From the NCBI GenBank assembly GCA_965231125.1, contig OZ246414.1, positions 827,239-891,238 of the forward strand: a stretch of DNA of 64,000 bases, in the 5' to 3' direction. Under the pieces are notes generated by a model. That model did not search any database and was not told the DNA's origin. It was given only the letters and a program-made list of their open reading frames with translations. Below are positions 1,311 through 62,953 of this stretch, one piece after another (the stretch's first letter is position 1; every line of letters starts with the position of its first letter). The DNA comes from an uncultured Gammaproteobacteria bacterium. GTDB taxonomy: Bacteria; Patescibacteriota; Microgenomatia; Woykebacterales; RBG-16-39-9b. A program made the position numbers and the translations under genes.

Positions 1311-2423
1311 TCACAGTGCTGTAAATTCAATTACGAAGGTGTTGGACCCGTCGGGATTTTTAACTGCTCCTGCCCCGACATCAATCTCATCAACTTCCCA
1401 GTTTGAAAGAATAACGTCCATATGTCCTGGACTATTGGTCCAATCGCTAATAGCCTGATCAAATGCAGTACTATCAGAATTCCAATTTCGCTCGATTACC
1501 TCACCCCATCCATTCGTAGTAATTCCACAATCAGTCAACGCTGTCTGCCCTGACCTTCCATCTGGACGAGTATGACTGAAAAGGATATCGGCTTCGTGAG
1601 CTCTGGTTCTTGCCGCTTGAACCATAAGCGGCTTTATAACTATGGTCTGTGAAAGACCTTGAGAACTCCTAGTTTCCTGAACCCATTGGTGAAGTGCGTC
1701 TTGCCAGGAGGCTTCGGTTGCAGTCGCGGCAGTTGAATTTGAGGTAACGGTTCCTTTGTAATAAAGTCGCAAGTGGTCTCCCGACGGAGAATAGACGTAA
1801 AAATCATACGGAGTCGAGGAATTAAGATCTACGAAAGTGTTTGAGGTTCCCGAAAGATTAAAGACCTCGCCGCCAACATTTGTATTTGTACCGGAGTTAG
1901 TTAAAAGAACACTGTAATTCGCTACGCCATTGCATGGCCCGCTTTTAAACGTCCCCTGCTGAAGTTTCGTTTTCGAACAATCCGGCCAGCAAACAACCCA
2001 ACTATAATTACGATTTGGGTAAAGATTCGTTAGGGTTGTGGAAGTACCACTAACCTGTCTAGGTGTACCGGCAACCACACAAAATGTGCCGCAATCATTA
2101 TCAAAAGCAACCACCGCGTAACTAATTCCTGTCCAAGAAAAGCTTACCTTGCCGGTTGAATCCGAAACTGCGTTTCCGGTAGCGTAATAATTATTCGTAC
2201 CGCCACACCCTGGTAAACAAACCTCCCACTTGTAAGAGAGTCCAGCTGGCTGGTTCGAAAGTACATAACTTTTGCTAGTTGTGGTTGTAATAACAAAGGG
2301 GATTTGCGAAGTGGCCGAGCATATAAAGCCGTACTTCTGAACAACCGATAAGACGTCCGCAATTGTTATCATGCCGTCGGCATTCAAATCGTATCTTTTG
2401 GAATAAGATGATTCTCCCTGCAC
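1311..2423 (-). CDS. Secreted protein with an N-terminal dockerin-like Ca-binding module, a Cys-rich middle and a C-terminal CAP/SCP (PR-1-like) domain. The likely true gene is 1311..2897, interrupted by an in-frame TAG (see findings).
   Basis: Dockerin-like repeat YDLNADGMITIADVLSVV. CAP-domain signature at the C-terminus (HTRPDG...GWGEV...SPGHMDVILSNW...VGAGAV). Confidence 0.6.
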   Translation of the reverse strand: MQGESSYSKRYDLNADGMITIADVLSVVQKYGFICSATSQIPFVITTTTSKSYVLSNQPAGLSYKWEVCLPGCGGTNNYYATGNAVSDSTGKVSFSWTGISYAVVAFDNDCGTFCVVAGTPRQVSGTSTTLTNLYPNRNYSWVVCWPDCSKTKLQQGTFKSGPCNGVANYSVLLTNSGTNTNVGGEVFNLSGTSNTFVDLNSSTPYDFYVYSPSGDHLRLYYKGTVTSNSTAATATEASWQDALHQWVQETRSSQGLSQTIVIKPLMVQAARTRAHEADILFSHTRPDGRSGQTALTDCGITTNGWGEVIERNWNSDSTAFDQAISDWTNSPGHMDVILSNWEVDEIDVGAGAVKNPDGSNTFVIEFTAL

Positions 2424-2943
2424 CGCACCAACTTTCGCTATTACTGTCTGAATATCCGCGGATGTAATTTTTTTATCTTTGTTAAAATCAGCTGGCCAAG
2501 AATCCTCCCCGACATCAGAACAATTATCATTCGGTAACGTACCAATAAAATTCTCGGCTTGATTTGTATAACCATCTTTATCAGAATCAAGGGATGTTGG
2601 GTAATAAATTCGGACAGCGTAACTAACTGGATTCCAATTTATGGTTTTAGAGACAGAACACCCCGAAGTTGCTGACCAACTTGCCGTACCTTGAGCAAAA
2701 TCACAACCAGCAGCTAAAGTTTTTAAATGGTTTCCCTAGGATTTATATTTAACTCCCCAAACTGTTAAGGGAATTAATACCAAAATAAAGACGGTGATTA
2801 AAAGAGTTAGCTGCTTTCTTAGAGAAAGAGATTCTAGAAGCTCAATCGGCTTTAGGATAATCTTTTCGATTTGCGAAGAGTTTGGCAGGGCAGGCATTAA
2901 TTAAATTTTAAGCTTGCAGAGAATGTCTGTCAAATATTAGGTG

Positions 2944-3018
2944 TGGCAGGCGCGGAGGGAATCGAACCCACGACCTCTGGTTTTGGAGACCAGCGTTCTA
3001 CCACTGAACTACACGCCT
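2944..3018 (-). tRNA. tRNA-Trp (CCA)
   Basis: Reverse complement folds as a cloverleaf with anticodon loop CUCCAAA. Acceptor stem AGGCGTG/CGCGCCT. The 3' CCA is encoded. Confidence 0.8.
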
Positions 3019-3064
3019 ACAATAACCCAAGGATTGGGCACAGGATTCGATAGTATGGAAGATA

Positions 3065-3682: not shown

Positions 3683-3775
3683 CATGCTGCACCCCAACAA
3701 GTCGGGGCTAAAAACCGCTGCTCTTAGACCACAGGTCGCAGCACGCTTTTAGCGGGCTACCACTGAGCTAAGTCG
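3683..3775 (-). other. Second tRNA-like 5' fragment (GCCGACTTAGCTCAGTGGTAG) carrying the same 33-nt core. It ends in a hairpin plus U-run (CCCCGACTTGTTGGGG) just upstream of tRNA-Thr(TGT).
   Basis: It shares the core ...GGTAGCCCGCTAAAAGCGTGCTGCG...CTAAGAGCA with 3378-3455. The 3' part duplicates the D/anticodon-stem sequence of the adjacent tRNA-Thr (AGAGCAGCGGTTTT). Confidence 0.4.
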
Positions 3776-3870
3776 GCAACTGAATGTTTCCAGCTTACCA
3801 AAACCCAGGCATTATATCAAAAACACTCTAAGGCTTCAAGCTTAGTTTCTTTTATCTACTAACCCCATAG

Positions 3871-3898
3871 TTTGACTTGCTCGTTATTTTATGCTATA
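3871..3898 (+). promoter_or_regulatory. Consensus sigma70-type promoter (TTGACT-17-TATACT).
   Basis: Read directly: ttgact tgctcgttattttatgc tatact. Confidence 0.5.
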
Positions 3899-3995
3899 CT
3901 CCATCTCGTCTGCAGTGGACGAAAGGGCCACGGGACAAGGAGGTGGAACAATGCGCGACATCCACGTTTAGAACTGGACGAAGGGCGAGCGCACC

Positions 3996-4208
3996 ATGCC
4001 CATAACCCCTGAGGGAATGGCCGAAGCCATCGAGTTCTTTCTCGACGACGGCTTCAACCTGGCCATCACCCCCACCGATAAGGGGCAAGCGGGTCCTTGG
4101 ATGCAGATCGGACGCGATCGAGAAAGCGGTCGACTTTCGGTCTTCATCTACACAGCCGGAGGCAATCCCGCAGCAATGGCCTCCATTGAGCTGGTTGATT
4201 CCTCATGA
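3996..4208 (+). CDS. Hypothetical 70-aa protein inside a ~300-bp GC-rich island (~58% GC).
   Basis: ORF in a region of anomalous GC. It is preceded by a strong SD (AAGGAGGT) that serves a 6-codon uORF (MRDIHV*). Coding status is uncertain. Confidence 0.3.
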   Translation: MPITPEGMAEAIEFFLDDGFNLAITPTDKGQAGPWMQIGRDRESGRLSVFIYTAGGNPAAMASIELVDSS

Positions 4209-4277
4209 ATTAACCAGCTCCCAAATCCCCTTTACACTATTCCCCTTCTATGCTAGAATCAGGGCCGTTTAAATTTA

Positions 4278-8655: not shown

Positions 8656-11600
8656 CTACTTATTTCCAGCTAGTTGTAAAGAGAAGTTTACAGCGGTGGT
8701 AGTGTTGACCAATACACTTGCCACCTTTACTTGTTTCTTATAACCAGATGCACTGGTAGTAACATTGTAACTTCCCACCGAAGGCTGGATTGCATAAAAA
8801 CCAGAACTGTTTGTGGTTGCCGATCCCACAAGCAAGGAATTACCTTTAGAACTAGCAACTGTAACTTTGATAATAGCACCTACAATTGGTGCGCCGGTAG
8901 AAGCACTCGTGACTTGGCCGGATAGTGTTCCGACTGTTGGCAGGGCAAGCGTCGTCGCTGAGGCACTATTTGAGGCTCCGGAAACATTACCGGCCGCATC
9001 ACGTGCCTTAACAAAGTAAGTATAGGTTGTTGAGGCAGCAAGCCCGGTATCTCCAAAACTGGTTGTCGAAACTGTAGTAATTTTACTGTTGTTTCTATAC
9101 ACATCGTAGCTGGTCACGCCTACGTTATCCGTACTGGTCGTCCAGGAAAGATTTATCTGGCTATAACTTACTGCCGCAGCTACTAAATTAGTCGGCGTCG
9201 TTGGCGCTTGGGTGTCTGGAACGGCTGGTGTGGTTGTTGTAGCGGTGTTAGAAGACCCTGAGTTGTTACCTGCAGCATCAGCAGCTATTACTTGGTAGTT
9301 GTAGGTTGTAGAGGCATTTACGCTAGTATCAGTGTAGCTATTTGTCGTAGATGAAGCAATTGTAATCCCATTTCTAACTACCCAATATTTTGCTATTCCC
9401 ACATTATCCGTAGAAGCATTCCAAGACAAACTCACTTTATTGTAGGCAACTGCTGTGGCAGTCAAACCTGTTGGAGTGCTTGGTGGTTGAGTATCTGAAA
9501 TTGGTGGGGCAGTTATCAACCTACCTGTCCTTGCGGCATCATGGCCAAACATAGGCCATTCATATTGGGCAGGGTTCGCGCCTGCTGTGGGAATTGTCCA
9601 AACAACCAATATTCCAGGGCGAACAACATCGTCAGGCGGAATGTGGTATCCAATAACTTCCATTTTCCCGTCGTTATCTAAATCCGCGACCAGCATTGGC
9701 CTTAAGAATTGCGGAACTGGTCCTTTTCTCCAATATGCAGAGCCATCATCATTCACAATAACTGCATCCGGATATGAGTCAGATGGGTATGGACTAAGGG
9801 AACAACAATAACCATTTGCCGTATACTCTAATTTACCATCGCCATCAATATCGCTTACCGAAGTTCCACCAGTTCCACCCATCTTATACTTCGTAAATAC
9901 ACCGGAAGCATTATCGTAAATAATCACATAGTAGAGAAAACCACCAACTATTTCATCTTTACCGTCGCCATTTATGTCCACTAAATCCGGCGCGTGGCGA
10001 GGTTGAGTTAGATACCATAAATAATCATCATAGGTGCCGGAAGTCTTCGGCGCGGTTTTCGGAAATCCCCAAACCAAACTGCCGTCTTTTTTCCAGGCAA
10101 ACCACCAAGCAGGACAAGTTGGGCATTGCCATTGAGCGCCGCCAAATGCTACTAATTCCAGCTTGCCGTCGCCGTCAATGTCGCCAAACCCGAGATTGTC
10201 CTTAAAATCAATGGGCAAAGGTCCTGTGGTGGTGTTTTGATTAGGCGAGGTGTAAGGCCAACTAGGTAAAAAGTTGCCCGCATTGTCTAATAGATAAACT
10301 CTGTTGAGAAAACCTAAGGCCATTTCTGGTTTGCCGTCGCCGTCCATATCGGCTATGGAAAAAGAAGTGAAATAAGGAAAGACGTTCTCTTTAGAAAGCA
10401 CAATGTCTTTTGGGAAGCCGGCAAGTTCTTCGCCGCTGGATTGATAGGCATGCAGAATATAGTGCCGGCCACTACCATCACCGTAGGTCCAATCTTGCAA
10501 GGCAATGATTTCTTTTTTGCCATCACCATTTAAATCGGCAATGGTCGGAGAGTGATAGTACCATGCAAAATGCCCGTATTGAGGCCAGCCCGGCATAACA
10601 GAACCGTCGCTCTTAAATACCCAAATAGGAGAGGAGAAAAGCATGCTTCCACCTCCAGCACCAGATTGCACCACAATTTCCTGTCTGCCATCGCCGTCTA
10701 AATCCGCCACGTTGACCGCTCCACCAAAAAAACCTTGGCTAGTTGCGTCTATAGCCACTGGGAAGCCCGGGAAATTGCTGCCGTCTTTTCTAAATACATA
10801 AACTTTATTCTGAACCGCCACAATTATTTCTTTTTTGCCGTCGCCGTCAAGGTCAGCTACAGCCGGCATAGCTTGCGATAATCCTCCACCACCCCCAACC
10901 GGATCCTGTTCAATGATTTTTGGCCAGCCGTTTAGTACGTCTTTATCAAGCAGCACCGCGCTAACAACAGATTCATTTGAAAGTGTGGAGTAAACCGTTA
11001 AGCGCAGCGAGTATTGCTGGTTGGGGGTTAAGGAAGATGTATCCCAGGTGCCCAACTGGCTATTAGTGACCGGCTGAGTGCCGCCATTGGCAAGGGTAAT
11101 GCCAGCCGTTGACCAAGAGGTTGGAGCAGAACCGGCACCCCATTCCAATTTGTAATTGGAAAACACCACTCCGTTTTTGGTAACTGCCGCGCCAAATACG
11201 GCAGTATTTCCCAAGGTCACTAAAGAATATGGGGAAGAAATAACTGCTTCTAAGTTGTCTATTAAAATATCATGAATTTGGAATTGATAGATTTTACCAT
11301 TGGTATCCGTAGCAGTGACCCTGATAATATTTAAGCCGTCAGGAATAGTTTTCGGGTCAATAGTCGCAAGCGGACCATTAATAACTTGCGTTGTTGAATT
11401 GGCGACTGCAATCCAACTCGTTGGCTGTCGGCCAATGCCAACTTCCACTTTATAACTCTTGAAGTTGGGGCCTGGTATGCTGCCTACAATAGTTATAACA
11501 CCGGTTGCCAATGTGCGGCTGCTCGGGCTTGTTATTATGGGCGAGAGGGGTTTGGTATCAGCTAAAGCAATAGAACCGCTTGCGCTAATCCTGCCATAGC

Positions 11601-13149
11601 CAAAGTCCTTGTCCTTTCCAACTGCGCCTAAATCGGTTGCGCCACTACGTATTATCTGCCGCACTTCTTCATTGGTTAATGAAGGATTTTTGGACAAAAT
11701 CAATGCTGCCAGTCCTGCCACGTGAGGCGTTGCCATGGATGTCCCTGAAACGCGGCAGTAGTTTGTCCCGACAGTGTTGCTTACTCCGCACATACCATTG
11801 ATTGAAGCCCTCGTAGATAAGATATCAACACCGGGTGCAGCCACATCTATTTTTTCGCCCCAGTTTGAGAATGAAGCTTTCAAGTCGTTTGAGTCAGAAG
11901 CTGCGACGCTAATCGCGTAGTCTGCAGATGCTGGCGAAAAGTCAAGTGCATCACCGTTATTATTCCCCGCGGCAACAACAGTAATCATTCCCCTATCATG
12001 TTCGTACTGGACGGCATCGTCCATTGCAACGCTGTTGCAGCCGCAGCCCCAGCTATTCGAGGATACCCTGGCGCCCATGTCGGCAGCATACTGCATAGCT
12101 TTAATGCCGGAGTCCAAAGAACCAGAGCCTCCAGCGCTCAGGAATTTCAGTGCCATTATTTTTACGTTCCAGTTAACGCCAACCACACCCAAGCCATTGT
12201 TGCCAACTGCACCAATGGTTCCTACAGTATGGGTGCCATGGCCATGATCATCCATAGGGTCGTTATCACTATTGGCAAAGTCCCAACCCAAATAGTCATC
12301 AACATAGCCATTGCTGTCGTCGTCTTTATTGTTGCCGGGAATTTCTTTGGTGTTAACCCACATATTGCTCGCTATATCCTGGTGGTTTCTGTCAACTCCT
12401 GTATCAATGCCAGCCACAACTATGTTCGCTGATCCTGTAGCTTGATTCCAAGCTGTTTCTGTACTTATCTTTTTCATTCCCCACATATCTGGATAGGTTT
12501 GACCCCACGAGCCGGTTGAGGAATAATATGGATCATTGGGAACTACAAACACCTCAACAGTATAATTTAAATCTACCGCTTCAATATTTGGATCTATCTT
12601 AAGTTTGGAGATAACCTTCTGTAAGTCCATTACAGATTGAGGGTTTGCTCTTGTCGATTTAGCGTTGGGGCTGGTTTTTCCGGTTTGGATAATTGATAAA
12701 GCCTTATTAAGTCTGCCTACAGCTTTCTCTTTTGGCGCATCCAGTGTCAGCTTATACCAGGAGAAAAGGTCGTGATCGGAACTTGAGTTTCTACCTACTT
12801 TGGCGACTCTTTTAAATCCTTTTCCATGGTTTTCCTTAAAGATGTTGTTTAATGATTCTATGCCGACATCCTGCGCATTGCCTTCTTTTACCTTTCCACG
12901 AGCATCTTTTTTTATTTTTATTAGAAGTTCGTTTGAGAGAAATTCAGTTTCTTTATTTTTTATTGGTGCCTGAGCCTGAGTTTGTTTGTTGGTGTTTAGG
13001 GGTTGAAAGATTCCAATGACAGTCAGAGGAATGATTAGTAGAAGGAAGACCGTAAGACCAACCGCGACAAGGTCGTTACGCTTATACGGTGGGTTTATTG
13101 CCTCTTGGTAGTTTTTTATCCCTGATTTAAATAAATCGACAGCTCTCAT
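8656..13149 (-). CDS. Giant secreted subtilisin-like serine protease (peptidase S8) with FG-GAP/beta-propeller repeats, three fibronectin type III domains and a C-terminal carboxypeptidase-regulatory-like domain.
   Basis: Catalytic triad motifs VAGIDTGVD (Asp), HGTHTVGTIGA (His) and GTSMATPHVAG (Ser). At least eight D-x-[DN]-G-D-G-K-x-E FG-GAP Ca-binding repeats. FN3-like segments (PPSTPTGLTATAV...SLSWNAS). N-terminal signal anchor. Confidence 0.85.
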   Translation of the reverse strand: MRAVDLFKSGIKNYQEAINPPYKRNDLVAVGLTVFLLLIIPLTVIGIFQPLNTNKQTQAQAPIKNKETEFLSNELLIKIKKDARGKVKEGNAQDVGIESLNNIFKENHGKGFKRVAKVGRNSSSDHDLFSWYKLTLDAPKEKAVGRLNKALSIIQTGKTSPNAKSTRANPQSVMDLQKVISKLKIDPNIEAVDLNYTVEVFVVPNDPYYSSTGSWGQTYPDMWGMKKISTETAWNQATGSANIVVAGIDTGVDRNHQDIASNMWVNTKEIPGNNKDDDSNGYVDDYLGWDFANSDNDPMDDHGHGTHTVGTIGAVGNNGLGVVGVNWNVKIMALKFLSAGGSGSLDSGIKAMQYAADMGARVSSNSWGCGCNSVAMDDAVQYEHDRGMITVVAAGNNNGDALDFSPASADYAISVAASDSNDLKASFSNWGEKIDVAAPGVDILSTRASINGMCGVSNTVGTNYCRVSGTSMATPHVAGLAALILSKNPSLTNEEVRQIIRSGATDLGAVGKDKDFGYGRISASGSIALADTKPLSPIITSPSSRTLATGVITIVGSIPGPNFKSYKVEVGIGRQPTSWIAVANSTTQVINGPLATIDPKTIPDGLNIIRVTATDTNGKIYQFQIHDILIDNLEAVISSPYSLVTLGNTAVFGAAVTKNGVVFSNYKLEWGAGSAPTSWSTAGITLANGGTQPVTNSQLGTWDTSSLTPNQQYSLRLTVYSTLSNESVVSAVLLDKDVLNGWPKIIEQDPVGGGGGLSQAMPAVADLDGDGKKEIIVAVQNKVYVFRKDGSNFPGFPVAIDATSQGFFGGAVNVADLDGDGRQEIVVQSGAGGGSMLFSSPIWVFKSDGSVMPGWPQYGHFAWYYHSPTIADLNGDGKKEIIALQDWTYGDGSGRHYILHAYQSSGEELAGFPKDIVLSKENVFPYFTSFSIADMDGDGKPEMALGFLNRVYLLDNAGNFLPSWPYTSPNQNTTTGPLPIDFKDNLGFGDIDGDGKLELVAFGGAQWQCPTCPAWWFAWKKDGSLVWGFPKTAPKTSGTYDDYLWYLTQPRHAPDLVDINGDGKDEIVGGFLYYVIIYDNASGVFTKYKMGGTGGTSVSDIDGDGKLEYTANGYCCSLSPYPSDSYPDAVIVNDDGSAYWRKGPVPQFLRPMLVADLDNDGKMEVIGYHIPPDDVVRPGILVVWTIPTAGANPAQYEWPMFGHDAARTGRLITAPPISDTQPPSTPTGLTATAVAYNKVSLSWNASTDNVGIAKYWVVRNGITIASSTTNSYTDTSVNASTTYNYQVIAADAAGNNSGSSNTATTTTPAVPDTQAPTTPTNLVAAAVSYSQINLSWTTSTDNVGVTSYDVYRNNSKITTVSTTSFGDTGLAASTTYTYFVKARDAAGNVSGASNSASATTLALPTVGTLSGQVTSASTGAPIVGAIIKVTVASSKGNSLLVGSATTNSSGFYAIQPSVGSYNVTTSASGYKKQVKVASVLVNTTTAVNFSLQLAGNK

Positions 13150-20792: not shown

Positions 20793-21485
20793 TCACGACC
20801 CGACCAACCTTGCTGTAACAATCAATCTCCGCAAACTCGAGCCGGGTGGATCGCAGGTTTGCAAAGTGACTATCGGATCCTTTGAGGGCTGGGTAATGTA
20901 GCGAGTATCGGTTGCCTCAACCACTTTCTTATCAAAAACAATGTAATCATAACGTTTCCCTTTGTAATAAAGTATAACTCTATCCCCAACTGCCAATTTC
21001 CTTAGTAAATAAAAAACACTGTTGTACATTCGCGCTTGAATCGGATTTACTGCCGAATGAGCAAAAAGGAAGACATTGTTGTTTGCCGCTTTTGTCGAAC
21101 CAGGAAACGCGGTCCCTTTGGCATGAGCAACCCCGGATCGTAAAGCGTTGATGTAATCGGCGTAGTTAAAGCTGTCAACGTTTGGAACTACTGGCGAGTT
21201 TACATCAATCTTGGGAATTACAATTCCAAAATTAGTATCTTTAGGTTTGATTGTAACAACCTTTGGCTCGATGAATGGGGCTAAAACACTTTTTTCCCTT
21301 TGGGAAGCTTGGGCTTCACCAGGAACAACGTAAGTCACTCCGGTGATATGATCCCACCAATAACGAATTTCCAGGCTAACGAACGGCCAAAAGCTAAGAA
21401 ACGCAAACATAACTCCCAAAATTATCAGAGAGTTTGCAATTGTTCTTATTAAAATAAAAAGCCAAAACCTATTTCTTTTTTGCAT
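20793..21485 (-). CDS. Sortase-family transpeptidase. Start trimmed to the second Met to avoid overlapping tRNA-Arg.
   Basis: TLQTCDP active-site Cys motif, upstream His (LFAHS), downstream Arg (VTARLV), N-terminal TM. Confidence 0.8.
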   Translation of the reverse strand: MQKRNRFWLFILIRTIANSLIILGVMFAFLSFWPFVSLEIRYWWDHITGVTYVVPGEAQASQREKSVLAPFIEPKVVTIKPKDTNFGIVIPKIDVNSPVVPNVDSFNYADYINALRSGVAHAKGTAFPGSTKAANNNVFLFAHSAVNPIQARMYNSVFYLLRKLAVGDRVILYYKGKRYDYIVFDKKVVEATDTRYITQPSKDPIVTLQTCDPPGSSLRRLIVTARLVGS

Positions 21486-21506
21486 AACGATAGCGAAAGG
21501 GTCACT

Positions 21507-21582
21507 TGGCGCCCCTGGAGGGAGTCGAACCCCCAATCTTTCCCTTAGGACGGGACTGCTTTATCCATTAAGCCACAGGGGC
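21507..21582 (-). tRNA. tRNA-Arg (CCT), probable
   Basis: Acceptor GCCCCTG/CAGGGGC is perfect. T-arm GGTTCGACTCC. Anticodon loop GUCCUAA. CCA is encoded. Confidence 0.6.
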
Positions 21583-22221: not shown

Positions 22222-22752
22222 ATGATCCCGCCAATTAAAACTCGAAGTTCTCTAAAAACCCTTGGCGGGCGTTTCGCCAAGTCCCCTGGTTTTACCCTTG
22301 TTGAACTTTTAGTTGTGATTTCAATTATTTCTGTTTTAGCAACTCTCGCTTTTGTTAACTATAGAACCGCCCAAAGAAATTCGCGAGACCAAAAAAGAAT
22401 TCAAGAGTTAGATGGAGTTAAAGGCTCTCTTGAACTCTATTTTCAAAATAATCAATCTTATCCAAACTCAGATGCAGCCGGAAACATGGCTTGTGGATCA
22501 CCAATTGTTTCTCTGAATTGGGGGTCCAGCCCGTTTAGCTGCTCCTCATCCGGGCCAGTTTATATGAGAGTGCTACCCTATGATACGAATGTGCAATATT
22601 GCTACGTATCGGCAGTAGCACCAACACCTGCAACTTCCTTTTCACTCTATGCTTTCATGGAAAACCCCAAAAATGTCAATCGCACTTTAGATGTAGCTGC
22701 CGGCTGTCCTGGAGGGGTTGAGTACAACTATTTACTAGAAAACGAAAAGTGA
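22222..22752 (+). CDS. Type IV pilin/pseudopilin (prepilin-type N-terminal methylation domain)
   Basis: GFTLVELLVVISIISVLATLAF class III signal peptide. Confidence 0.8.
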   Translation: MIPPIKTRSSLKTLGGRFAKSPGFTLVELLVVISIISVLATLAFVNYRTAQRNSRDQKRIQELDGVKGSLELYFQNNQSYPNSDAAGNMACGSPIVSLNWGSSPFSCSSSGPVYMRVLPYDTNVQYCYVSAVAPTPATSFSLYAFMENPKNVNRTLDVAAGCPGGVEYNYLLENEK

Positions 22753-22783: not shown

Positions 22784-23344
22784 TTGACAAAGACGGCCGT
22801 TACAAATATATTTAAAGCAATGTCCATTCCAACTAGGCATTACGTAAAACGCGGTTTTACGCTCATTGAACTTCTAATTGTTGTGGCGATTATTTCGATT
22901 CTTATATCGATTGGGGCAACTTCCTACCTTAGAGCGCAGAAAAATGGTCGGGATGGCCAAAGGAAATCTGACCTGGGTATAGTAGCCTCTGGTCTCGAAC
23001 AGTATTATGCCGACAATAATAAATATCCGCAGAGTGGCACTGGTGCTGATGCTGGAAAAATATTTTGCGATGGGGCTGCCTTGAATTGGGATGGAACAAC
23101 AGCGTTTGCTTGTTCATCAAGAACTTACCTTAGCAAGCTTCCCCAGGATCTACTGGCTCCGGCTCAAAATTACTACTACCTCGCCTTGAATTCGTCGGGT
23201 GCTGCTGGTTGTGATAATACATCACCAGGCAATAGTTGTCAGCGGTTTATACTATCAACAAATTTGGAAAATAATAATGACGACAGTAGAAATGCTGGTT
23301 GTAACAGTTCTAATGCGACTGACGATTACTGCCTCTACCCATAA
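22784..23344 (+). CDS. Type IV pilin/pseudopilin, second copy
   Basis: RGFTLIELLIVVAIISILISIGATSY class III signal peptide. Confidence 0.8.
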   Translation: MTKTAVTNIFKAMSIPTRHYVKRGFTLIELLIVVAIISILISIGATSYLRAQKNGRDGQRKSDLGIVASGLEQYYADNNKYPQSGTGADAGKIFCDGAALNWDGTTAFACSSRTYLSKLPQDLLAPAQNYYYLALNSSGAAGCDNTSPGNSCQRFILSTNLENNNDDSRNAGCNSSNATDDYCLYP

Positions 23345-35758: not shown

Positions 35759-38700
35759 ATGCCTACCTCTCTGCCCAAAGAGAATAAGTTAGTACCAATT
35801 GGTGAAGCCGCCGATTTCCTTGGTGTTTCAATTGACACCCTGCGTCGCTGGGACCGCTCTGGTAAACTTCACTCGCACCGCCCCGACAGTAAGAACCGTC
35901 ATTTTTATTTTAATGAGCTAGAACAAATAAAGTTCTCCCAACCGTTCTCGATATCAGAGGCCGCAGCCCGCCTTGGCATCTCCCCCACCACTCTAAGAAG
36001 GCTTGAGAAAAAAGGTTTAGTTACACCAGAAAGGAATAAAAACAGTGAAAGGCTCTACTCGCATGAGTCACTAGAAAAGCTAACCAATTCTCCTCAACTT
36101 CTTCGCCACAATCCTCCTGAAGAAAAAATTATAAGACCATTGGAAAACACAGCGGTCTTACTAAGTAAACAACCGTCAAAGTCGAAGATAAAACCAGAAG
36201 CTTTAGTTGACACTATTGTTGAAACACGAGAAAAAGTTTTAGAGAACTGGGAGAGGGTTCTTGAAGAAAAAGAAAAGGTCATAGAACTTGAGGAAAAGGA
36301 ATTCGAAACAAGAAAAAATCTTAATGCTATTAATAGGGCCAAAAGCCGTTTGTTGCGGTCATTGGCATCGATAGTTCTACTTTTAATAATTACTATCTCA
36401 GCTATCACCACTGCTTATCTTATCAGCCCTGAATCCACGGCTAAATTCTTTGGCTATTACAATCCTCGTAGCTTTCAAAATCAGTCTAGTAAGCCCGCAA
36501 CTTCTTTGGTTGGACAGCGCAGTGGAGAGATCTTGGGAATCCACTATCCAACTAATCTGCCTGCAACATCAAACCCGTTGTCTGACTTACTTAAGCCCCT
36601 AAGCAATGTATCTTTGGCTATCGTTTACCTAGTCAACCGTGAAACTTACAACAAAGTAGTTCCTGCGAAAGTACTAGCAGACGTAAATGAAGCCTTTACA
36701 ATTGATGAGGGAGGAAATCTTGCGCCACTTTACACTATCCGACTTCCCGAGAGTAGTTATCTCGAAGTTCCGGATAAAGGGCTCATCAGCAATCTTAACG
36801 CCGATTATTTACGCGGTAAGGTGCCTGGTAATGAAGAGGGTAACCTAGTTATTTTTGGCGAGGGTGGCTCAGTCGCCAATTTGAAAGTAGATGAGACGAA
36901 CCTTAAGAATGGCTCTGTAAAGGGCGGCCCTGGCGGGGTAATTGCTGACAACACAATCACGGCAAATGATCTAGCACCAGGCATTTCTTTAGGAGGTGGT
37001 GGAAGTGGTGATGTAACGGGAGTTATTGCTGGTGACGGCTTAATCGGCGGCGGAAGCTCCGGAAGCGTAACATTGAATATTGAGGTGGGTAACGGATTAC
37101 AAGTTTCGGCTGATCAACTTAATCTCGATGTGAATACAACCGGAACGACTTCAACTACTTTTGCGAATTCTGGACTGGAAACTAGCAGTAATGGTCTGTC
37201 ATTGCTAAAAGGTTGTGCTGATAACCAAATCTTAAAGTGGGACGCTGGGGCAGTCAGATGGCAATGTGAAGCAGATTCAGGTGGAGGCGGCGGAGGAAGT
37301 ATTGATATTGAAGAAGGTGATGCGACGATAACTTCTGGCGCTGGGTTCCTAGATTTTTTGGCGTCTGACTTTAATGTATCAGACTCGCCTGCTGGCGAGG
37401 CTAATGTCTCTATTGATTATGCAAATAGCGATATAACAAGAAACGACGTGGCCGAAACGATTACTGGAGGTTGGACTTTTAACACAATCCCAACTACCTT
37501 CACTACCGCCATCGATGTTAACTCCGCTTCAACAATCGCTGGGTTAACAGTTGACGGGTCCGGTACATTCACAGCGAACAATGCCGCTACTTTCCTTGGG
37601 AATATTACTGCTAATGACGCTTCGGCGGATACGATACTTATTGGTCAAAACGGTGCCACCGATGACACGGTCACCATCGCTGGCAATATCTCTCTGACTG
37701 ATGATCAGTGGTCTATTTCAGCAACTGGGGTAGCTAGTGGTCTATCCGGAACAAATACTAGTTTAACAGCTGGGGACCTTTCCTGCGCAAATTGTATTGG
37801 TGGTACTGAGATTGATGAATCTACTTTTGGCGCTCTAACTGCCACTTCGCTAACTTCCACTGGGACTCTAGATGTTTCAGGTGTAGCTACCTTTACTGGA
37901 AATATAACGGCAAACGACGCTTCGGCGGATACTATTTTGATTGGGCAATCAGGAGCTACAGACGATACAGTCACGATTGCCGGCAACATTTCCCTTACTG
38001 ATGACCAATGGTCCATTTCGGCTACTGGCGCGGCAAGTGGGCTTTCAGGCACTAACACTGGACTAACTGCTGGTGATCTTTCCTGTACTAATTGTATTGG
38101 CCCAACTGAAATATCCGATTTAACACTAACCGCTGATACTACTGGTGATTATGTGGCCACTATCACTGCTGGTGGCGGACTGACAGGTGATGCAAGCGGT
38201 GAAGGGTCAACACCAACTTTGGCGGTAGGTACTGGCTCTGGAATTACTGTCAATGCCGACGATGTGGCAGTAAACCAGAACTTCTCCTTTGCCTGGACAG
38301 CCGATCATACTTGGACGTTAGCTGGCGCCGAAGATTTGGCTATCAGTCATGACGGTACTGGCGGGGCGGTTGATATTGTGAACATTTCGGCTACTCCCTC
38401 CTCAAGCGCTGGGGCTATGAATGGTCTAGTTATCACTCAAGCTAATTCGGCGAACACTAATCCCCTTGATGCTGGGTTGCGGATCAACAATGCTGATACT
38501 AATCTAGCTATACCAGCGGCAATTCAGATAGCTAACACAGGCGGTGGTGGCTACACTACCATTATAGATAATGCGGGTACTTTGATTTCTGGTACCGAAC
38601 TTAATGTCCTGGACTCTGGAATTGATGAGTCTGAAGTAACCGGTGATATTGAAGCTGTAACAGCCGGTTCAGGACTAACTGGAGGCGGAGCCGCTGACTC

Positions 38701-41700
38701 AGTCACCCTAAATATTGGAGCCGGAGACGGTATTACTGTTAATGCTGACTCCATACAAGTAAGACTGGATACTACTGCCGCTGATGGAGCAACTACTTCC
38801 TCTGTCTCTGGTATGGAGTTTGTGGGTGGAGAACTATCTCTGATCCGGGGCTGTGCTGCCGGCGGCATCCTTGAATGGGATAATGTCGCCTTTGAGTGGG
38901 ATTGTGGTGTTGATGATACTGGAGGAGGTGGGGCTAATAGTTTCGAAACCATCAATGCCCCAGCTGGGACTGACCCAGTGGCTGACTCTGCTACTGACAC
39001 CCTTAACCTGACCGTGACTGAGGCTAACTTAACCATTACTGGTAACTCTGGAACAGATACTCTTGACTTTGATATATCCGAGGCTACCCTAGCCGGAGCA
39101 GGACTCGCCGCCAACGGTGATGCACTGGACGTAGGGGCTGGAGACGGGATTAGCGTGGCCGCCGACTCGGTAGCTGTAAGGCTAGATACTACTGCAGCCG
39201 ATGGGGCGACTACTTCATCGGTCTCTGGTATGGAGTTTGCGGGAGGTGAATTATCTTTAATTAGAGGCTGTGCCGCTGGTGGAATACTGGAATGGGATAA
39301 CGTAGCCTTTGAGTGGGACTGTGGGGTAGATGACACTGGCGGTGGTGGGGCGAACTCCTTCGAGACCATCAACGCTCCAGCTGGGACTGACCCGGTCGCC
39401 GATTCCGCTACTGACACTCTTAACCTGACCGTGACTGGGGCTAACCTGACCATTACCGGAACTGCGGGTACTGATACCCTTGACTTTGATATATCCGAGG
39501 CAACTCTTGCCGGGGCAGGCCTCACCGCCAACGGGGACGCCCTGGACGTGGGTGCCGGGACCGGAATAACCGTTAACGCTAATGACGTGGCCGTCAACAC
39601 TGGGGCGGCCTTTGCCTGGACTGGTCTCCACTCCTGGACTAACACTCTCACTAATGATAGTAGTAGTCAGGATATTAACCTTACTCTTGGTGCCGACGCG
39701 GATGCCGATATCATTTCCGGCCTTAATATTGACGTCACTTCCGCCGCGACGGGAGACGCCGATCTGCTTTACGGGATAAATATAGGGAACGTGACCTCTG
39801 CTGATGGGACGGTTGTGGAGACTGCCCTGCGTATTGGTGAAGACTGGGAGAACGCGGTGGAAGTAGAAGGGTCAACTAACGACGCCGTCGAGACTTACCT
39901 GGTCTTTACGGATCCGACGGTTTCCGATAAAACGATTACCTTCCCTAACGAGACCGGCACGGTTTGTACCACGGGTAGTGTCTGTTCTGGTTACCAAGCC
40001 TCAGGCTCTTTTGTGCCTACCACGCGAACCTTGACCGCCGGTGACGGACTTTCCGGTGGCGGCGATCTCTCCGCCGACCGTTCCTTTGCGGTTAACACTG
40101 CTTCGGGTATAACCACCTCGGCTGACAACGTGGTTCTGGACCTTACTTACGCGGCCGCCTGGACTGGTCTCCACTCCTGGACTAACACTCTCACTAATGA
40201 TAGTAGTAGTCAGGATATTAACCTTACTCTTGGTGCCGACGCGGATGCCGATATCATTTCCGGCCTTAATATTGACGTCACTTCCGCCGCGACGGGAGAC
40301 GCCGATCTGCTTTACGGGATAAATATAGGGAACGTGACCTCTGCTGATGGGACGGTTGTGGAGACTGCCCTGCGTATTGGTGAAGACTGGGAGAACGCGG
40401 TGGAAGTAGAAGGGTCAACTAACGACGCCGTCGAGACTTACCTGGTCTTTACGGATCCGACGGTTTCCGATAAAACGATTACCATACCCAACCGCTCTGG
40501 TACAGTCTCCCTCTCTGGAGATACCTTTACGGGAGACGTGACTGGTACCTTAAATAGTAGTGGAGCCACTGCTTTAACTGTCGCTAGTGACGCTGTTGCT
40601 CTAACGACTGATACTACTGGTGATTATGTATCCTCAGCTACTGCAAGCGGTGGGCTTACTCTAACTGGCACCGAAGGTGCATCACTAGGTATTGACCTGT
40701 CTAGTGGAGACGGTGCTGGTGGCACATCCAGCGGTTCAGGCCTAGAATTAGACGCCAACGGAGTCGGACTACTACAAGGTTGTGGTATTAACGAGATTCT
40801 TAAATGGAATGATGGTGCTTCCACTTGGGGTTGTGCCACGGATGTCTCCGGTGGTACTCCTTCCCTAGATACTATCAGTGCCGCACTCGCCAATGGAAGT
40901 GCTCAAGATTCTAATGCTTTTACCATTAACTGGAACTGGGATTTTCAAGCTGCCGCCGTTGACTCCGGTCTTAATATCTCGGAATCATCAAATTCGACGC
41001 TCGGCACCCAAGACCAACAGGCCCTGGTTGAGATAACAACCCTTGCCAACTCCACTGCCTCACCTTTGCAAGTCACCGCTGGCGGGACTGCTGCCGGTGA
41101 TGTCTGGTTCGATTTAAGCGGCACTTCAGATTTTGAAATCCGCGATGCTGGGACCGCATTTGCCATTTTCAAAAATGATTCGACTACTGACTGGGTTTTA
41201 CCAGCTGCTGGTGACATTGCGATTGACGCGGCGACGACCGACACCACCACCACCGCTGGCGTTTTGGATCTTAACATTGACGCTGGTAACGCTGCTGTTG
41301 ATGGTATCAATATTGACATGGAAGCCGCGGGTGCTATTACTGCGGGTACTGACATTACAGCTTTGGAAATTCTCCTAACCGCAACTGACACCGATGCTGA
41401 TCTATTTGGTATTACCATAGACACTCATGCTACGGCAGGTATTGCTAGTTCATATGATGCTGGCATTAAGATTAACAATCAAGATGACACCGGCGGATCC
41501 ATGCTAGATGGAATTATTATTACAGCCAATACCGATACCGCTATCACCGACGGTCTTGATGTATCGGATGCGGAAATTGTGAATGCTATTAACATTGGTG
41601 GAAATGCCATTGCCGGAACAAACTTTGCTGTCAGTGCTGCTGGCGCCATCACCGCCGCGACAGGCATCACCTCCTCTGGAACAATCACACTTTCCGGTCT

Positions 41701-49336: not shown

Positions 49337-50161
49337 TTAGTAAAAAATTATGACCAGCGAAAGTCCTAGTCCAGCAACGGCCAAAAACACAATTGCTCCG
49401 AGATTCAAGAACATACTTGAAAAGATTGTTCCTTTAGCCAATGGGTTTCGACCTATGGCAACAATACTTGTGCGCAGCGCCCGAGCGGCAAAAATAAAAC
49501 CTAAGATAAAAGAAGCGCTCCCCACTACAAATGCGAAGAGATAGCGTATAAAAAACTCGAGTCCGCGCGGCTGCGAAAGAGTCTCTGAGGTTACCGCTGT
49601 AATTTTATCAAGTACATTTTTTAAATTTGCCGCGCCAATCCTATTTTGGTACTGAATATTAATGAAAACCGGTATGGTACCTACCCCTTCACCACTGTAA
49701 GAAGCTGATGCTTTACCAATAACCATACCTTCATGGGTTGCCTTTTCCCCAACCCCAGCTTGGTCCGACGAAGTTATGAAATCCCCAACCTCAATATTTC
49801 CGGCTGCTGCCGAAACCCTCACTTCGGCTTCCCCTTGAGAAATAACTGGTACAGTAGTTTTTGTTTGAACATTAAGTACTGCCGCTGGGTCCTGGACCGC
49901 TACGCCAAATATGTTTTGGTCGTACTCACCGGTAGATCTAACTATTTTGCTGTCGGTTGTTAAAGATAGTATATCCCCGGGTTGGATATTTTTGTCATCG
50001 ACTTCAAAGTTTTTAGCAATTTGCCCACCGGTTAAAACTTGCGCGAAAACAAAAGAATGGTTAAGACGCAGGGACGCGACCAGAACAAGACTTATTAGAC
50101 TAACAAACTTGACTCCACTAGTTAATTCAGGCAGGTTATTTAGCTTCAATCGGGCAAACAT
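49337..50161 (-). CDS. Fusion protein: signal peptide, then the extracytoplasmic domain shared with both giant proteins, then a C-terminal F-ATPase c-subunit-like helical hairpin that lacks the conserved carboxylate.
   Basis: The C-terminus LRTSIVAIGRNPLAKGTIFSSMFLNLGAIVFLAVAGLGLSLVIIFY aligns with c-subunit SRTIEGIARQPE...[22 protein letters not shown]. A Val/Asn sits at the Glu/Asp position. The gene occupies the atpE position of the operon. Confidence 0.55.
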   Translation of the reverse strand: MFARLKLNNLPELTSGVKFVSLISLVLVASLRLNHSFVFAQVLTGGQIAKNFEVDDKNIQPGDILSLTTDSKIVRSTGEYDQNIFGVAVQDPAAVLNVQTKTTVPVISQGEAEVRVSAAAGNIEVGDFITSSDQAGVGEKATHEGMVIGKASASYSGEGVGTIPVFINIQYQNRIGAANLKNVLDKITAVTSETLSQPRGLEFFIRYLFAFVVGSASFILGFIFAARALRTSIVAIGRNPLAKGTIFSSMFLNLGAIVFLAVAGLGLSLVIIFY

Positions 50162-60472: not shown

Positions 60473-62953
60473 ATGAGAATGCTTATAGGATTATACCGAC
60501 GGAAAACTAAATTTTTCACTTTAGTATCCACTTCTGTCGTCATCTTTGCCGTTGTATTAGGGTTTTTATTTATTAAATCTTTAGAGAGGCATCCTTACGC
60601 CTTCGGTCAGACTTCCGATGCTACACCATACGGGCTTGATCTACTCCAAAATCCGGAAAAAATAGCTTACCTTAGGCCACTTGTAAAAATAGGTAAAGTC
60701 TCTAGTCATGCCAAAGACGGCTACAATAAAGACTCAGGTATATCAGATGACAACGGACAAGAAACTTACCTATACAAAAACGGTTCTAACTACGTGCTTC
60801 TAGACGAAAAGGGCCCAGGCACAATTACCAGACTCTGGTTTTATTTGTTCCCGGATGGAGTCTCCCCTGATGGAACAGTATTTAGTAATTATAAAAGCTA
60901 CAGATTAAAATTCTTTTTCGACGGCGAAACAACTCCACGAGTAGACAAAACTTTAGACGAGATATTCTCCGGGACCCAAAGCCCATTTCTGTCTCCTTTG
61001 GTCGGTAATGCAAACACAAGCTCAGGAGGTTCCTACTCTTATGTGCCGATGAGTTTTGCAAAATCCGTCAGGGTCGAAATCACAGGCATGCCCTATTATT
61101 ACCAGATAGATTATGAGAAATACGATTTAACTGTACCTGTTACCACATTTACACCAAGTATTGACGTTTCCGCGGTTGTTAATAAATGGAGTAACGCCGG
61201 AACCCAAGACCCCAAATCTTTGAGCGGAACTGTAATGACAACTTCTGGAACAATTGACAGCAATAATCCTTTAAAAAAGGGCGATACCCTGCAAATTTTT
61301 AACCAGACGGGCTCGGCTGTCATTAAATCAATAGTCTTCACAGTTCCGGGATACTCGGATCCCAGCGATTCCACTTCAAGAGATGTCTTCATGAATATGC
61401 GTATAAAAGGAACCTGGGATAATAATTCGCAGCCCAATATTGACGTACCCTTCGGTTCGTTCTTTGGTACCTTTTTAGGTAAAACAAACACTAAAGGCCT
61501 CTTCTTTGGCTCTGATCCGCAGACAGGCAGGCTTTATAACTATTACCCGATGTATTTTGCCAACTCGGCAAACCTCTCGCTTGTCAACAACAGCCAGTCG
61601 GATATTTCGGGAATTTCATACCAAATAGAATACATCCCACTTACTTCAATTGATGGACTCGGCACTAAAATCGGTTATTTTAACGCCACCTATAACCAGG
61701 AAATTCCAGTTACCCCCAGCGTGGATTTTAAAATGGCTAACCTTTCGGGGCGTGGCCAAATTGTCGCTAACACCCTGTATATTAAATGCTGGTCTCTGGA
61801 CCAACCAACATGGCAATTGCATCATTCTTGCCTTGAAGGTGACGAAAGATTTTATATTGATGATTCAAAATCTCCAGATACGTACGGAACTGGCACAGAA
61901 GAATTTTTTAATGGCGCCAATTATTTTATACTAGGACCATTTAACCGACCTACCCACGGCGATAACTACCAATTTACTAAATATAATTCAAGTCCAACAA
62001 CTTTCGATGGTTACGGCGAAGATTCTGCCTGGCGTATCTTTGCGGTTGATCCAATACCATTCCGCTCAAATATATTGATGGGTATCGAACACGGGAATCC
62101 TTATAAATACGGCACTATAGAATTACCAGGCTGGAACCAAAAAAGCACATATCCTGGCAATTATTACAGTACAGTATTTTGGTATGGTACCAATGCTGCA
62201 GACCTAAACCCCGTTGATTCACTTGATGTCGGAAACTCCCAAAGCCAGACAAGCCACTTGTACAGTGCGGGCGCGTCTGCAAATATCCCATCTCAAACAT
62301 TTTTCTATGAGGGTGATAACGATGAAGTGCCTGTTTCCGATGACGGCCAGTCAGGCACAGGAAAAATAACATTCAAGATGAATGTTGATTCTGGAAAGGC
62401 TCATGTACTTCGCCGAAGATTTGACCAGTCTATAAGAAACCAAAGCGCTGAAGTAAGAATAGATGGCGTGAGAATTGGGACATGGTACGATGCAGGAAGA
62501 AATTCCGTACTCAGATGGAAAGAAAGTGAAATGTTCATTCCGGCAATTCATACCCAAGGTAAATCCCAAATTACAGTCCAAGTTACCCCCAACCCTGGAT
62601 CAACGTGGACCACCTTTCGTTATGATCTATTTTCAATTCCCTCTACATCTCCACAAAACTTATCCGACTTTGACCTCGATGGCTTTAGTGACACTTTAGA
62701 AACCTACCTTGGGACCAACTCTCAAAGTGATTGCTCATTAAACTCAAGTACCGATGCCTGGCCACCAGATTTTAACCGTGATGGTAAAGTTTCAGTAGCC
62801 GATATAGATGCTGTGAAACAAGCCTACGGCAAAAACTCATCATCGGCCGACTGGTCTACAAAATATAAGAGGCTTGATCTTGTCCAGAACGGTTCAATCA
62901 CCATTGCCGATATAATGGCCGTAGTTAATCTTTACAATCGATCCTACTGTTAA
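60473..62953 (+). CDS. Secreted 826-aa protein with an N-terminal signal anchor and a C-terminal thrombospondin-3-like/dockerin-like Ca-binding module
   Basis: The C-terminus DFDLDGFSD...DFNRDGKVSVADIDAV...DLVQNGSITIADIMAVV is a duplicated dockerin-type F-hand. The central domain is unassigned. Confidence 0.7.
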   Translation: MRMLIGLYRRKTKFFTLVSTSVVIFAVVLGFLFIKSLERHPYAFGQTSDATPYGLDLLQNPEKIAYLRPLVKIGKVSSHAKDGYNKDSGISDDNGQETYLYKNGSNYVLLDEKGPGTITRLWFYLFPDGVSPDGTVFSNYKSYRLKFFFDGETTPRVDKTLDEIFSGTQSPFLSPLVGNANTSSGGSYSYVPMSFAKSVRVEITGMPYYYQIDYEKYDLTVPVTTFTPSIDVSAVVNKWSNAGTQDPKSLSGTVMTTSGTIDSNNPLKKGDTLQIFNQTGSAVIKSIVFTVPGYSDPSDSTSRDVFMNMRIKGTWDNNSQPNIDVPFGSFFGTFLGKTNTKGLFFGSDPQTGRLYNYYPMYFANSANLSLVNNSQSDISGISYQIEYIPLTSIDGLGTKIGYFNATYNQEIPVTPSVDFKMANLSGRGQIVANTLYIKCWSLDQPTWQLHHSCLEGDERFYIDDSKSPDTYGTGTEEFFNGANYFILGPFNRPTHGDNYQFTKYNSSPTTFDGYGEDSAWRIFAVDPIPFRSNILMGIEHGNPYKYGTIELPGWNQKSTYPGNYYSTVFWYGTNAADLNPVDSLDVGNSQSQTSHLYSAGASANIPSQTFFYEGDNDEVPVSDDGQSGTGKITFKMNVDSGKAHVLRRRFDQSIRNQSAEVRIDGVRIGTWYDAGRNSVLRWKESEMFIPAIHTQGKSQITVQVTPNPGSTWTTFRYDLFSIPSTSPQNLSDFDLDGFSDTLETYLGTNSQSDCSLNSSTDAWPPDFNRDGKVSVADIDAVKQAYGKNSSSADWSTKYKRLDLVQNGSITIADIMAVVNLYNRSYC

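Follow-up and report, generated by a model that had tools for sequence, protein, structure and literature searches.

A dockerin-type module shared by two exported proteins

Two otherwise unrelated exported-type proteins encoded in a 64,000-nucleotide stretch of contig OZ246414.1 (the whole stretch is hereafter the window) bear one and the same calcium-binding dockerin tag of ~95 residues. One copy (module A) is N-terminal in a protein with a C-terminal CAP/YkwD-like domain (gene A, minus strand), and the other (module B) forms the C-terminus of a GH172 glycoside hydrolase (gene B, plus strand). In a BLASTP comparison of the excised segments, copies A and B have 35 of 87 residues in common (~40% identity; E=1e-18). 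When the full-length proteins are compared, the module is the sole significant match (36/90 identical, E=3e-15). A preliminary description of this DNA, made from the sequence alone, had proposed that the same module occurs in two unrelated proteins, N-terminal in one and C-terminal in the other, and both points are borne out by these comparisons. A profile built from copies A and B found no third copy in a six-frame translation of the window. The positions of the modules and of gene B are as follows.

2319..2591, minus strand: complete composite module A, with the EF-hand/TSP3-like loop at one end and the closing Cys at the other (within the 473-aa part of gene A, residues 48-138)
2520..2588, minus strand: module A EF-hand/TSP3-like loop, DSDKDGYTNQAE, followed by its helix and by the first of the two invariant Cys residues (TSP3_bac E=0.053, sub-threshold)
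2319..2498, minus strand: module A dockerin proper (WPAD...GFIC), including the second invariant Cys (Pfam Dockerin_1, 33.4 bits)
2454-2489, minus strand: module A F-hand loop 1, DFNKDKKITSAD
2355-2390, minus strand: module A F-hand loop 2, DLNADGMITIAD
60473..62953, plus strand: gene B, whose 826-aa product is an exported glycoside hydrolase of family GH172 (DUF2961) with a signal anchor at the N-terminus and module B at the C-terminus (identified with Pfam)
62663..62950, plus strand: module B (residues 731-826, the C-terminus of the 826-aa protein)
62666-62734, plus strand: module B TSP3-like loop
62759-62950, plus strand: module B dockerin, with the protein ending in ...SYC
62768-62803, plus strand: module B loop 1, DFNRDGKVSVAD, canonical
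62876-62911, plus strand: module B loop 2, DLVQNGSITIAD, partly degenerate with Val at ligand position 3

The identification of both copies as dockerins, also proposed in the preliminary description, is supported by profile, sequence, and predicted fold. The Pfam Dockerin_1 model (PF00404; gathering threshold 22.9 bits) matches copy A at 33.4 bits (E=5.4e-8) and copy B at 23.2 bits (E=8e-5), the latter barely above the threshold. Each copy contains two tandem 12-residue F-hand loops of the dockerin pattern (Asp at position 1, Asn or Asp at 3, Asp or Asn at 5, and Asp at 12), except that loop 2 of copy B has Val at position 3, and each loop is followed by a helix in the model predicted for copy A. 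The best sequence match in the PDB is the type II X-dockerin of Clostridium thermocellum CipA (2b59_B, E=1.4e-4), and in this alignment the Trp located before loop 1 is paired with the corresponding Trp of CipA. An AlphaFold2 model of copy A, made with an alignment of 58 diverse modules, is a single compact domain with high confidence (predicted local distance difference test score, pLDDT, 95.1; predicted template modeling score, pTM, 0.84). The predicted helices span residues 13-19, 47-54, and 80-87, and each begins at position 9-10 of one of three loops. When this model was compared with the PDB using Foldseek, only the last ~57 residues of the module aligned, with type II dockerins ranked first at a root-mean-square deviation (rmsd) of 0.8 Å and 30% identity. 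The top 11 matches are all dockerin-containing chains of cohesin-dockerin complexes, mostly of type II; ten of these align over 52-61 columns with an rmsd of 0.7-2.1 Å, and the remaining one has an rmsd of 6.9 Å. The unit is thus a dockerin to which a putative third calcium site, EF-hand-like, is added at the N-terminus, with a Cys at either end. Both are ordinary new members of the dockerin family that routine domain annotation would flag.

Two simpler explanations for the shared module were considered. The preliminary description had named generic EF-hand-like noise as the finding that would overturn its reading. Weak, sub-threshold EF-hand Pfam matches do accompany Dockerin_1, and the PDB match lists include calmodulin-like proteins toward their end. 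However, all EF-hand Pfam models score below their own thresholds in both copies whereas Dockerin_1 scores above its curated one, dockerins outrank EF-hand proteins in the fold search, and the pairwise E-value between the copies is 1e-18. In addition, there are thousands of full-length homologs with invariant residues that are not calcium ligands (both Cys and R69) and a conserved Trp-Pro. With the Pfam results, pairwise similarity, conservation, and fold search in agreement, a resemblance due to EF-hand or Asp-rich low-complexity noise without specific dockerin kinship is ruled out for practical purposes.

The second explanation is a recent duplication, gene conversion, or mobile cassette inside this genome, as the occurrence of two modules within 64 kb might suggest. 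At the DNA level, nothing alike was found between the two copies beyond an 18-nt patch, and 40% amino acid identity without nucleotide similarity points to old common ancestry of a domain instead of a recent duplication. The two copies also belong to different subfamilies; copy B has an 'ADW..YKR' insertion and a '..FC/..YC' end in common with the homologs P0125, P0106, P0134, and P0177. Furthermore, the orthologs of gene A (P0002-6 and P0083, in conserved synteny) and of gene B (P0125) already possess their respective modules. Based on this divergence, the subfamily split, and the module-bearing orthologs of each gene, a recent origin of one copy from the other was rejected as highly improbable.

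Organization and conservation of the module

At its N-terminus, the module has an EF-hand/TSP3-like loop of the pattern DxDxDGxxxxxE, from which a helix exits. A Cys and a short, variable linker come next, followed by a Trp-Pro, the dockerin with its two F-hands, and finally a second Cys. This composite unit of ~90-96 residues is larger than a dockerin alone. Among the 58 aligned modules, D5, D7, D9, E16, C27, D38, D49, R69, D71, D82, and C94 are invariant. Four other positions, namely, G20, T21, W35, and P36, are conserved in at least 90% of the modules, and the motif WPxD is found immediately before the first dockerin loop. The invariant acidic residues coincide with calcium-loop positions: D5, D7, D9, and E16 correspond to positions 1, 3, 5, and 12 of a canonical EF-hand loop, and the pairs D38/D49 and D71/D82 to positions 1 and 12 of the two dockerin F-hands.

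The two Cys residues tend to occur together. Among 371 dockerin hits, a C-terminal Cys is present in 173 of the 197 sequences that have the N-terminal Cys, compared to 32 of the 174 that lack it; these sequences are related to one another, such that the co-occurrence is supportive and not conclusive. The pair probably forms a disulfide that links the two ends of the module. In known dockerins, an 'intramolecular clasp' between the residues just before loop 1 and the C-terminus is required (PMC3821032). In the type II dockerin of C. thermocellum, a Trp at position -2 serves as the clasp residue, and a broken clasp in Ruminococcus flavefaciens ScaA results in lower stability and lower cohesin binding (PMC3821032). 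The conserved Trp-Pro and the Cys pair of the module would fit a reinforced, probably covalent version of such a clasp.

The genes that carry the module

Gene B is intact, unlike gene A. The GH172 assignment of its product is strongly supported (PF11175, DUF2961; 186.1 bits, E=9.5e-55), and the precomputed Pfam labels are GH172_1st, GH172_dom, and GH172_2nd. An ortholog of this glycosidase found elsewhere (P0125) has a C-terminal module of the same subfamily as copy B.

Gene A had been described as a single gene at 1311-2897. Translation of minus-strand positions 1311-3020 does give a single long frame, but this frame is not one open reading frame (ORF); it consists of a 53-codon ORF, a TAG that had been overlooked, and 473 codons that end at 1311. 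The parts of gene A are as follows.

2736..2897, minus strand: N-terminal membrane anchor/signal of gene A, the 53-codon ORF (MPALPNSS...LTLLITVFILVLIPLTVWGVKYKS), which aligns with the N-termini of the intact homologs P0002-P0006
2733..2735, minus strand: in-frame TAG that interrupts gene A, with Gln at the equivalent position in homologs P0002 and P0003
1311..2732, minus strand: remainder of gene A (473 codons and a stop), encoding a short Cys-containing segment, module A, an fn3-like beta region, and the C-terminal CAP/YkwD-like domain

The membrane-anchor stretch of the 53-codon ORF includes LTLLITVFILVLIPLTVWGV. The next start codon (ATG, GTG, or TTG) after the TAG is a GTG at 2423, which corresponds to residue 104 of the 473 and is located between the two dockerin loops. 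The homologs of protein A (P0002-P0006 and P0083) are 508-524 aa in length, with Pfam Dockerin_1, fn3, and CAP domains and the same order of membrane anchor, module, fn3-like region, and CAP/YkwD domain. Orthologs of gene A in several relatives share conserved synteny, with L33 and tRNAs on one side and the M50 peptidase, L28, and Def/Fmt on the other. In one relative, the gene beside the orthologous CAP gene encodes an S8 peptidase (L002 11621-13693) that has a plain dockerin with neither the TSP3 loop nor the Cys pair.

The identical TAG is found in a JGI contig from an independent assembly, which shares 99.87% identity with the window (seven mismatches in 5,423 bp, one of which is within gene A). 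Within the window, TAG is the stop codon of 8 out of 35 ORFs and splits no other gene, which rules out its reassignment. Given the independent assembly and the use of TAG as a normal stop, the interruption represents a real and recent nonsense mutation instead of recoding or an assembly error. The Gln found at this position in P0002 and P0003 indicates that the event was likely a change from CAG to TAG. Gene A is thus either a very recent pseudogene, with the remaining ORF still intact, or a site of read-through; it is probably dead. Because of this TAG, only copy B is certainly located on an intact gene for an exported protein.

Family size, distribution, and fusion partners

The module belongs to a very large family. 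We used a profile of six sequences, covering the entire ~96-residue unit, to search 1.84 billion cluster representatives (50% identity). With an E-value cutoff of 1e-3, it matched 7,921 of these, and with a cutoff of 1e-10, it matched 1,238; in most cases, the match covers profile positions 4-95. From this family, we examined a pooled set of 180 proteins, all of which match the module profile. Of their 161 full-length module matches, 86 are located no more than eight residues from the C-terminus, 32 occupy an N-proximal position, and the other 43 are internal. Two to five copies of the module are present in 35 of the proteins. In a set of 91 proteins, the domains fused to the module include CAP, Big_7, fn3, CBM60, subtilase, PA14, GH172, GH5, GH2, and M10/M11 peptidases. 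Such diverse extracellular fusions are the pattern of a portable tag. A search with a degenerate DNA pattern for AWPPDFNND found five loci (one in Dehalococcoidia, two in 'Gammaproteobacteria' metagenome-assembled genomes [MAGs], and two in unclassified MAGs), which are too few to describe the taxonomic spread.

Comparison with known families

With the type II dockerins of C. thermocellum CipA (X-Doc, 2B59/3KCP) and Acetivibrio cellulolyticus ScaA (X-Doc, 4U3S), the window modules share the two F-hand calcium loops with a helix after each and the clasp-forming Trp two or three residues ahead of loop 1. For the predicted fold, the identity is 28-30% and the rmsd is 0.8-0.9 Å over 53-57 residues. 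The window modules differ from these dockerins in three aspects. First, the Ig-like X-module is absent, and there is instead an N-terminal extension of ~35 residues with a third EF-hand-type loop and helix. Second, an invariant Cys pair brackets the dockerin. Third, the proteins that carry the module are not cellulases.

The closest curated model of a composite domain is NCBIfam NF041520 ('flexitail domain-containing putative surface protein'). All 107 positions of this model (1-107) can be aligned with the module over residues 5-94. The aligned part begins at the first Asp of the TSP3-like loop and extends as far as the last Cys, which indicates the same overall composite layout. The 40-bit cutoff of this model was not reached by copy A (18.4 bits; 23.8 bits for the excised module) or copy B (12.7 bits), nor by any relative sampled: 27 of the 58 modules match weakly, and all of the ten further relatives score below the cutoff. 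Judging from these scores, the window modules are distant relatives of flexitail and not members. The use of NF041520 domains as terminal tails on surface proteins is our assumption based on the name of the model. A second model, NCBIfam NF041540 ('GC-type dockerin domain-anchored protein'), is similar in having a C-terminal dockerin-like tail that ends at a Cys. It covers only the dockerin part (profile positions 4-64 of 67); copy B scores 18.6 bits against its 29-bit cutoff, and copy A has no match.

The N-terminal loop resembles the thrombospondin type 3 (TSP3) calcium-binding repeat and its bacterial model TSP3_bac (PF18884) in the DxDxDGxxDxxExxxGT pattern. The TSP3-like label given in the preliminary description can be kept in part: this pattern is visible in both copies, but the profile scores are below the 25-bit cutoff of TSP3_bac (13.8 bits and E=0.053 for copy A, and no match at E<=1 for copy B). 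Across the wider family, TSP3_bac is matched at E<=1e-4 by 41 of the 91 module-bearing proteins. The window modules differ from TSP3 proteins in having a single repeat fused to a dockerin instead of an array, and judging from the Cys co-occurrence, the Cys of this part appears to be paired with the far-end Cys of the dockerin and not within the repeat.

In the literature searched, we found no description of the composite TSP3-dockerin module or of flexitail, and no structure or binding study. One preprint reported dockerins and bacterial TSP3 repeats together in giant Omnitrophota proteins. For the window, these comparisons mainly provide better annotation, namely, two proteins with a standard, if extended, dockerin tag. 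This tag belongs to a very abundant composite domain that is split into two models by Pfam and covered by NCBIfam through a narrow relative only.

Association with cohesins and possible function

In other organisms, the module is repeatedly found together with cohesins. The protein P0089 contains a Pfam Cohesin domain (32.8 bits; threshold 24.1) followed by two modules. A C. thermocellum cohesin sequence served as a lead for candidate picking only, and the match that it suggested was confirmed with Pfam. The gene for P0089 is located in a 15-kb stretch with seven module-ended genes, including one for a GDSL lipase (L009 1581-16558, ENA ERZ25039602 contig_28699). This cluster resembles a compact non-cellulosomal cohesin-dockerin gene cluster and has one gene with an N-terminal cohesin. 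Among the 180 proteins, the cohesin region of P0089 has homologs in at least ten further module proteins (phmmer E from 1e-16 to 2.5e-4), and an iterated profile search (jackhmmer) led to 16 cohesin-bearing module proteins. A word-indexed search with the P0089 cohesin domain returned no matches; the relatives were found with phmmer and jackhmmer.

The P0089-type cohesin is divergent, but its fold is well supported. The profile of this domain matches cohesins in the PDB (CipA Coh2 at E=0.0017, followed by ScaC and CipC). An AlphaFold2 model of the domain (pLDDT 77, pTM 0.78) was compared with known structures using Foldseek, and all 50 listed matches are cohesins, with E-values down to 1.6e-8. 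The module family is thus tightly associated with a genuine, divergent cohesin family, which represents the best available evidence for cohesin docking. The usual layout of the cohesin-bearing relatives is signal peptide, module, cohesin, and module, for which no description was found in the literature searched. Unlike multi-cohesin scaffoldins, these are typically small proteins, and this secreted module-cohesin-module architecture recurs in P0060, P0082, P0068, P0105, P0067, and P0123. In principle, such proteins could self-associate into chains. The recurrence of fusions to a divergent cohesin suggests that many uncultivated bacteria have non-cellulosomal cohesin-dockerin assemblies.

Because of the recurrent fusion to a genuine cohesin fold in other organisms, a docking role is reasonable for the family. 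For the window, we lean toward a model in which the GH172 enzyme docks in a calcium-dependent manner to a surface or scaffold protein that bears a cohesin and is encoded in another part of the genome. In this scenario, the protein would be exported via its N-terminal signal anchor, and the module would bind up to three calcium ions. The module would be locked through a Trp-aromatic clasp, as in known dockerins, and probably through a disulfide between the Cys residues at its two ends as well. The two dockerin helices would then dock on a cohesin domain of the partner protein. Such docking would tether the GH172 glycosidase (copy B), and ancestrally also the membrane-anchored CAP-domain protein (copy A), to the surface or scaffold protein. 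If a partner were found in this lineage, it would reveal the means by which the cell surface retains a GH172 glycosidase.

Several observations weigh against this interpretation. A Pfam scan of part of the window proteins found no cohesin, and the family-specific cohesin profile found nothing in all six frames of the 64-kb window (best E 0.88), consistent with the earlier statement that no cohesin is recognized here. No cohesin was found near the orthologs or in the conserved neighborhoods of relatives either, and the cohesin profile matched nothing in the loci of these relatives. The modules that are fused to cohesins fall into sequence subfamilies other than those of copies A and B, and probably into other phyla, which makes the link to the window copies indirect. 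Without read-through of the TAG, no exported protein that includes copy A can be produced. In copy B, the Val at ligand position 3 of loop 2 may weaken one calcium site. Finally, the disulfide and the third calcium site are derived from conservation and not from coordinates or experiment.

An alternative that we regard as possible but rather unlikely is a cohesin-independent tail, i.e., a calcium-stabilized domain that anchors or retains secreted proteins via a non-cohesin ligand or merely stabilizes the protein. Candidate ligands would include polymers of the cell wall or S-layer, pili, a giant surface protein, or the surface of a host cell. Reduced-genome organisms, maybe including this one, would then carry dockerin-tagged proteins without any cohesin. 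The lack of a cohesin in the window and in the syntenic loci of relatives fits such a tail, as does the much higher abundance of the module relative to its cohesin fusions (7,921 clusters versus 11-16 fusions among 180 proteins). Likewise, the nearest NCBI composite models are named merely as a 'flexitail...putative surface protein' and a 'GC-type dockerin domain-anchored protein', and the window encodes giant surface proteins without recognizable domains (e.g., one of 2,375 aa). However, the dockerin core fold is kept to 0.8 Å with the clasp Trp of cohesin-binding type II dockerins retained, and the fusion and gene clustering of the family with a genuine cohesin fold are strong and repeated. 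Moreover, no non-cohesin ligand of the dockerin fold is known.

The preliminary description had inferred a cellulosome-style or surface-anchoring attachment system in this organism. The underlying dockerins are genuine and the family is fused to cohesins in other organisms, but no cohesin was found in the window; this reading is therefore supported in part only, and such a system in this organism is putative. The window modules are similar to cellulosomal and non-cellulosomal systems (e.g., the Archaeoglobus fulgidus cohesin 2XDH and Clostridium perfringens NagJ/NagH) in that secreted hydrolases are dockerin-tagged, and in other organisms the module and a cohesin fold share gene clusters and single polypeptides. 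In contrast to those systems, no scaffoldin, cohesin, or cellulase was seen in the window. Module A is carried by a CAP/YkwD-like protein and module B by a GH172 glycosidase, neither of which is a plant cell wall-degrading enzyme; no cellulase or xylanase was found in the window, and nothing points to cellulose degradation.

A broader proposal, which we consider rather unlikely, is that the Cys-bracketed, three-calcium 'TSP3-dockerin' may represent a distinct, very large (at least 7,900 clusters), and uncharacterized class of dockerins with its own divergent cohesin family. The module-cohesin-module proteins would polymerize or cross-link into extracellular networks. In the bacterium studied here, which probably has a reduced genome, the tag would hang the GH172 glycosidase on such a network or on the surface of a partner or host cell.

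Other features of the window

Several other genes in the window encode large or exported proteins. The 2,375-aa ORF mentioned above (50368-57495, plus strand) is closely followed downstream by the gene for a Wzy_C/TPR protein and the GH172 gene; no Pfam family was matched at E<=0.01 and no PDB sequence at E<=0.1. A 2,581-aa ORF (35759-43504, plus strand) has two N-terminal MerR/helix-turn-helix (HTH)-type DNA-binding motifs, a membrane segment, long Gly/Thr/Ala-rich repeats, and a weak terminal match to H-type lectins. It is odd for a cytoplasmic HTH to be joined to a giant protein that appears to be extracellular. A 1,497-aa secreted subtilase (Peptidase_S8; 8656-13149, minus strand) contains FG-GAP repeats, two fn3 domains, and a CarboxypepD_reg-like end, with no dockerin.

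A sortase gene (20793-21536, minus strand) is found beside two type IV pilin-like genes with the N_methyl motif (22222-22752 and 22784-23344, both plus strand) and tRNA-Arg/tRNA-Pro. Neither of the two dockerin proteins has an LPXTG-type end. PADLOC found no defense-system match. The ~580 nt between the tRNA cluster and secE (3690-4270) contain no convincing ORF and no Rfam family at the gathering threshold. A 274-aa protein (49337-50161, minus strand) encoded next to the ATP synthase genes has a weak, sub-threshold likeness to phage cement/minor capsid proteins (E ~1e-4).

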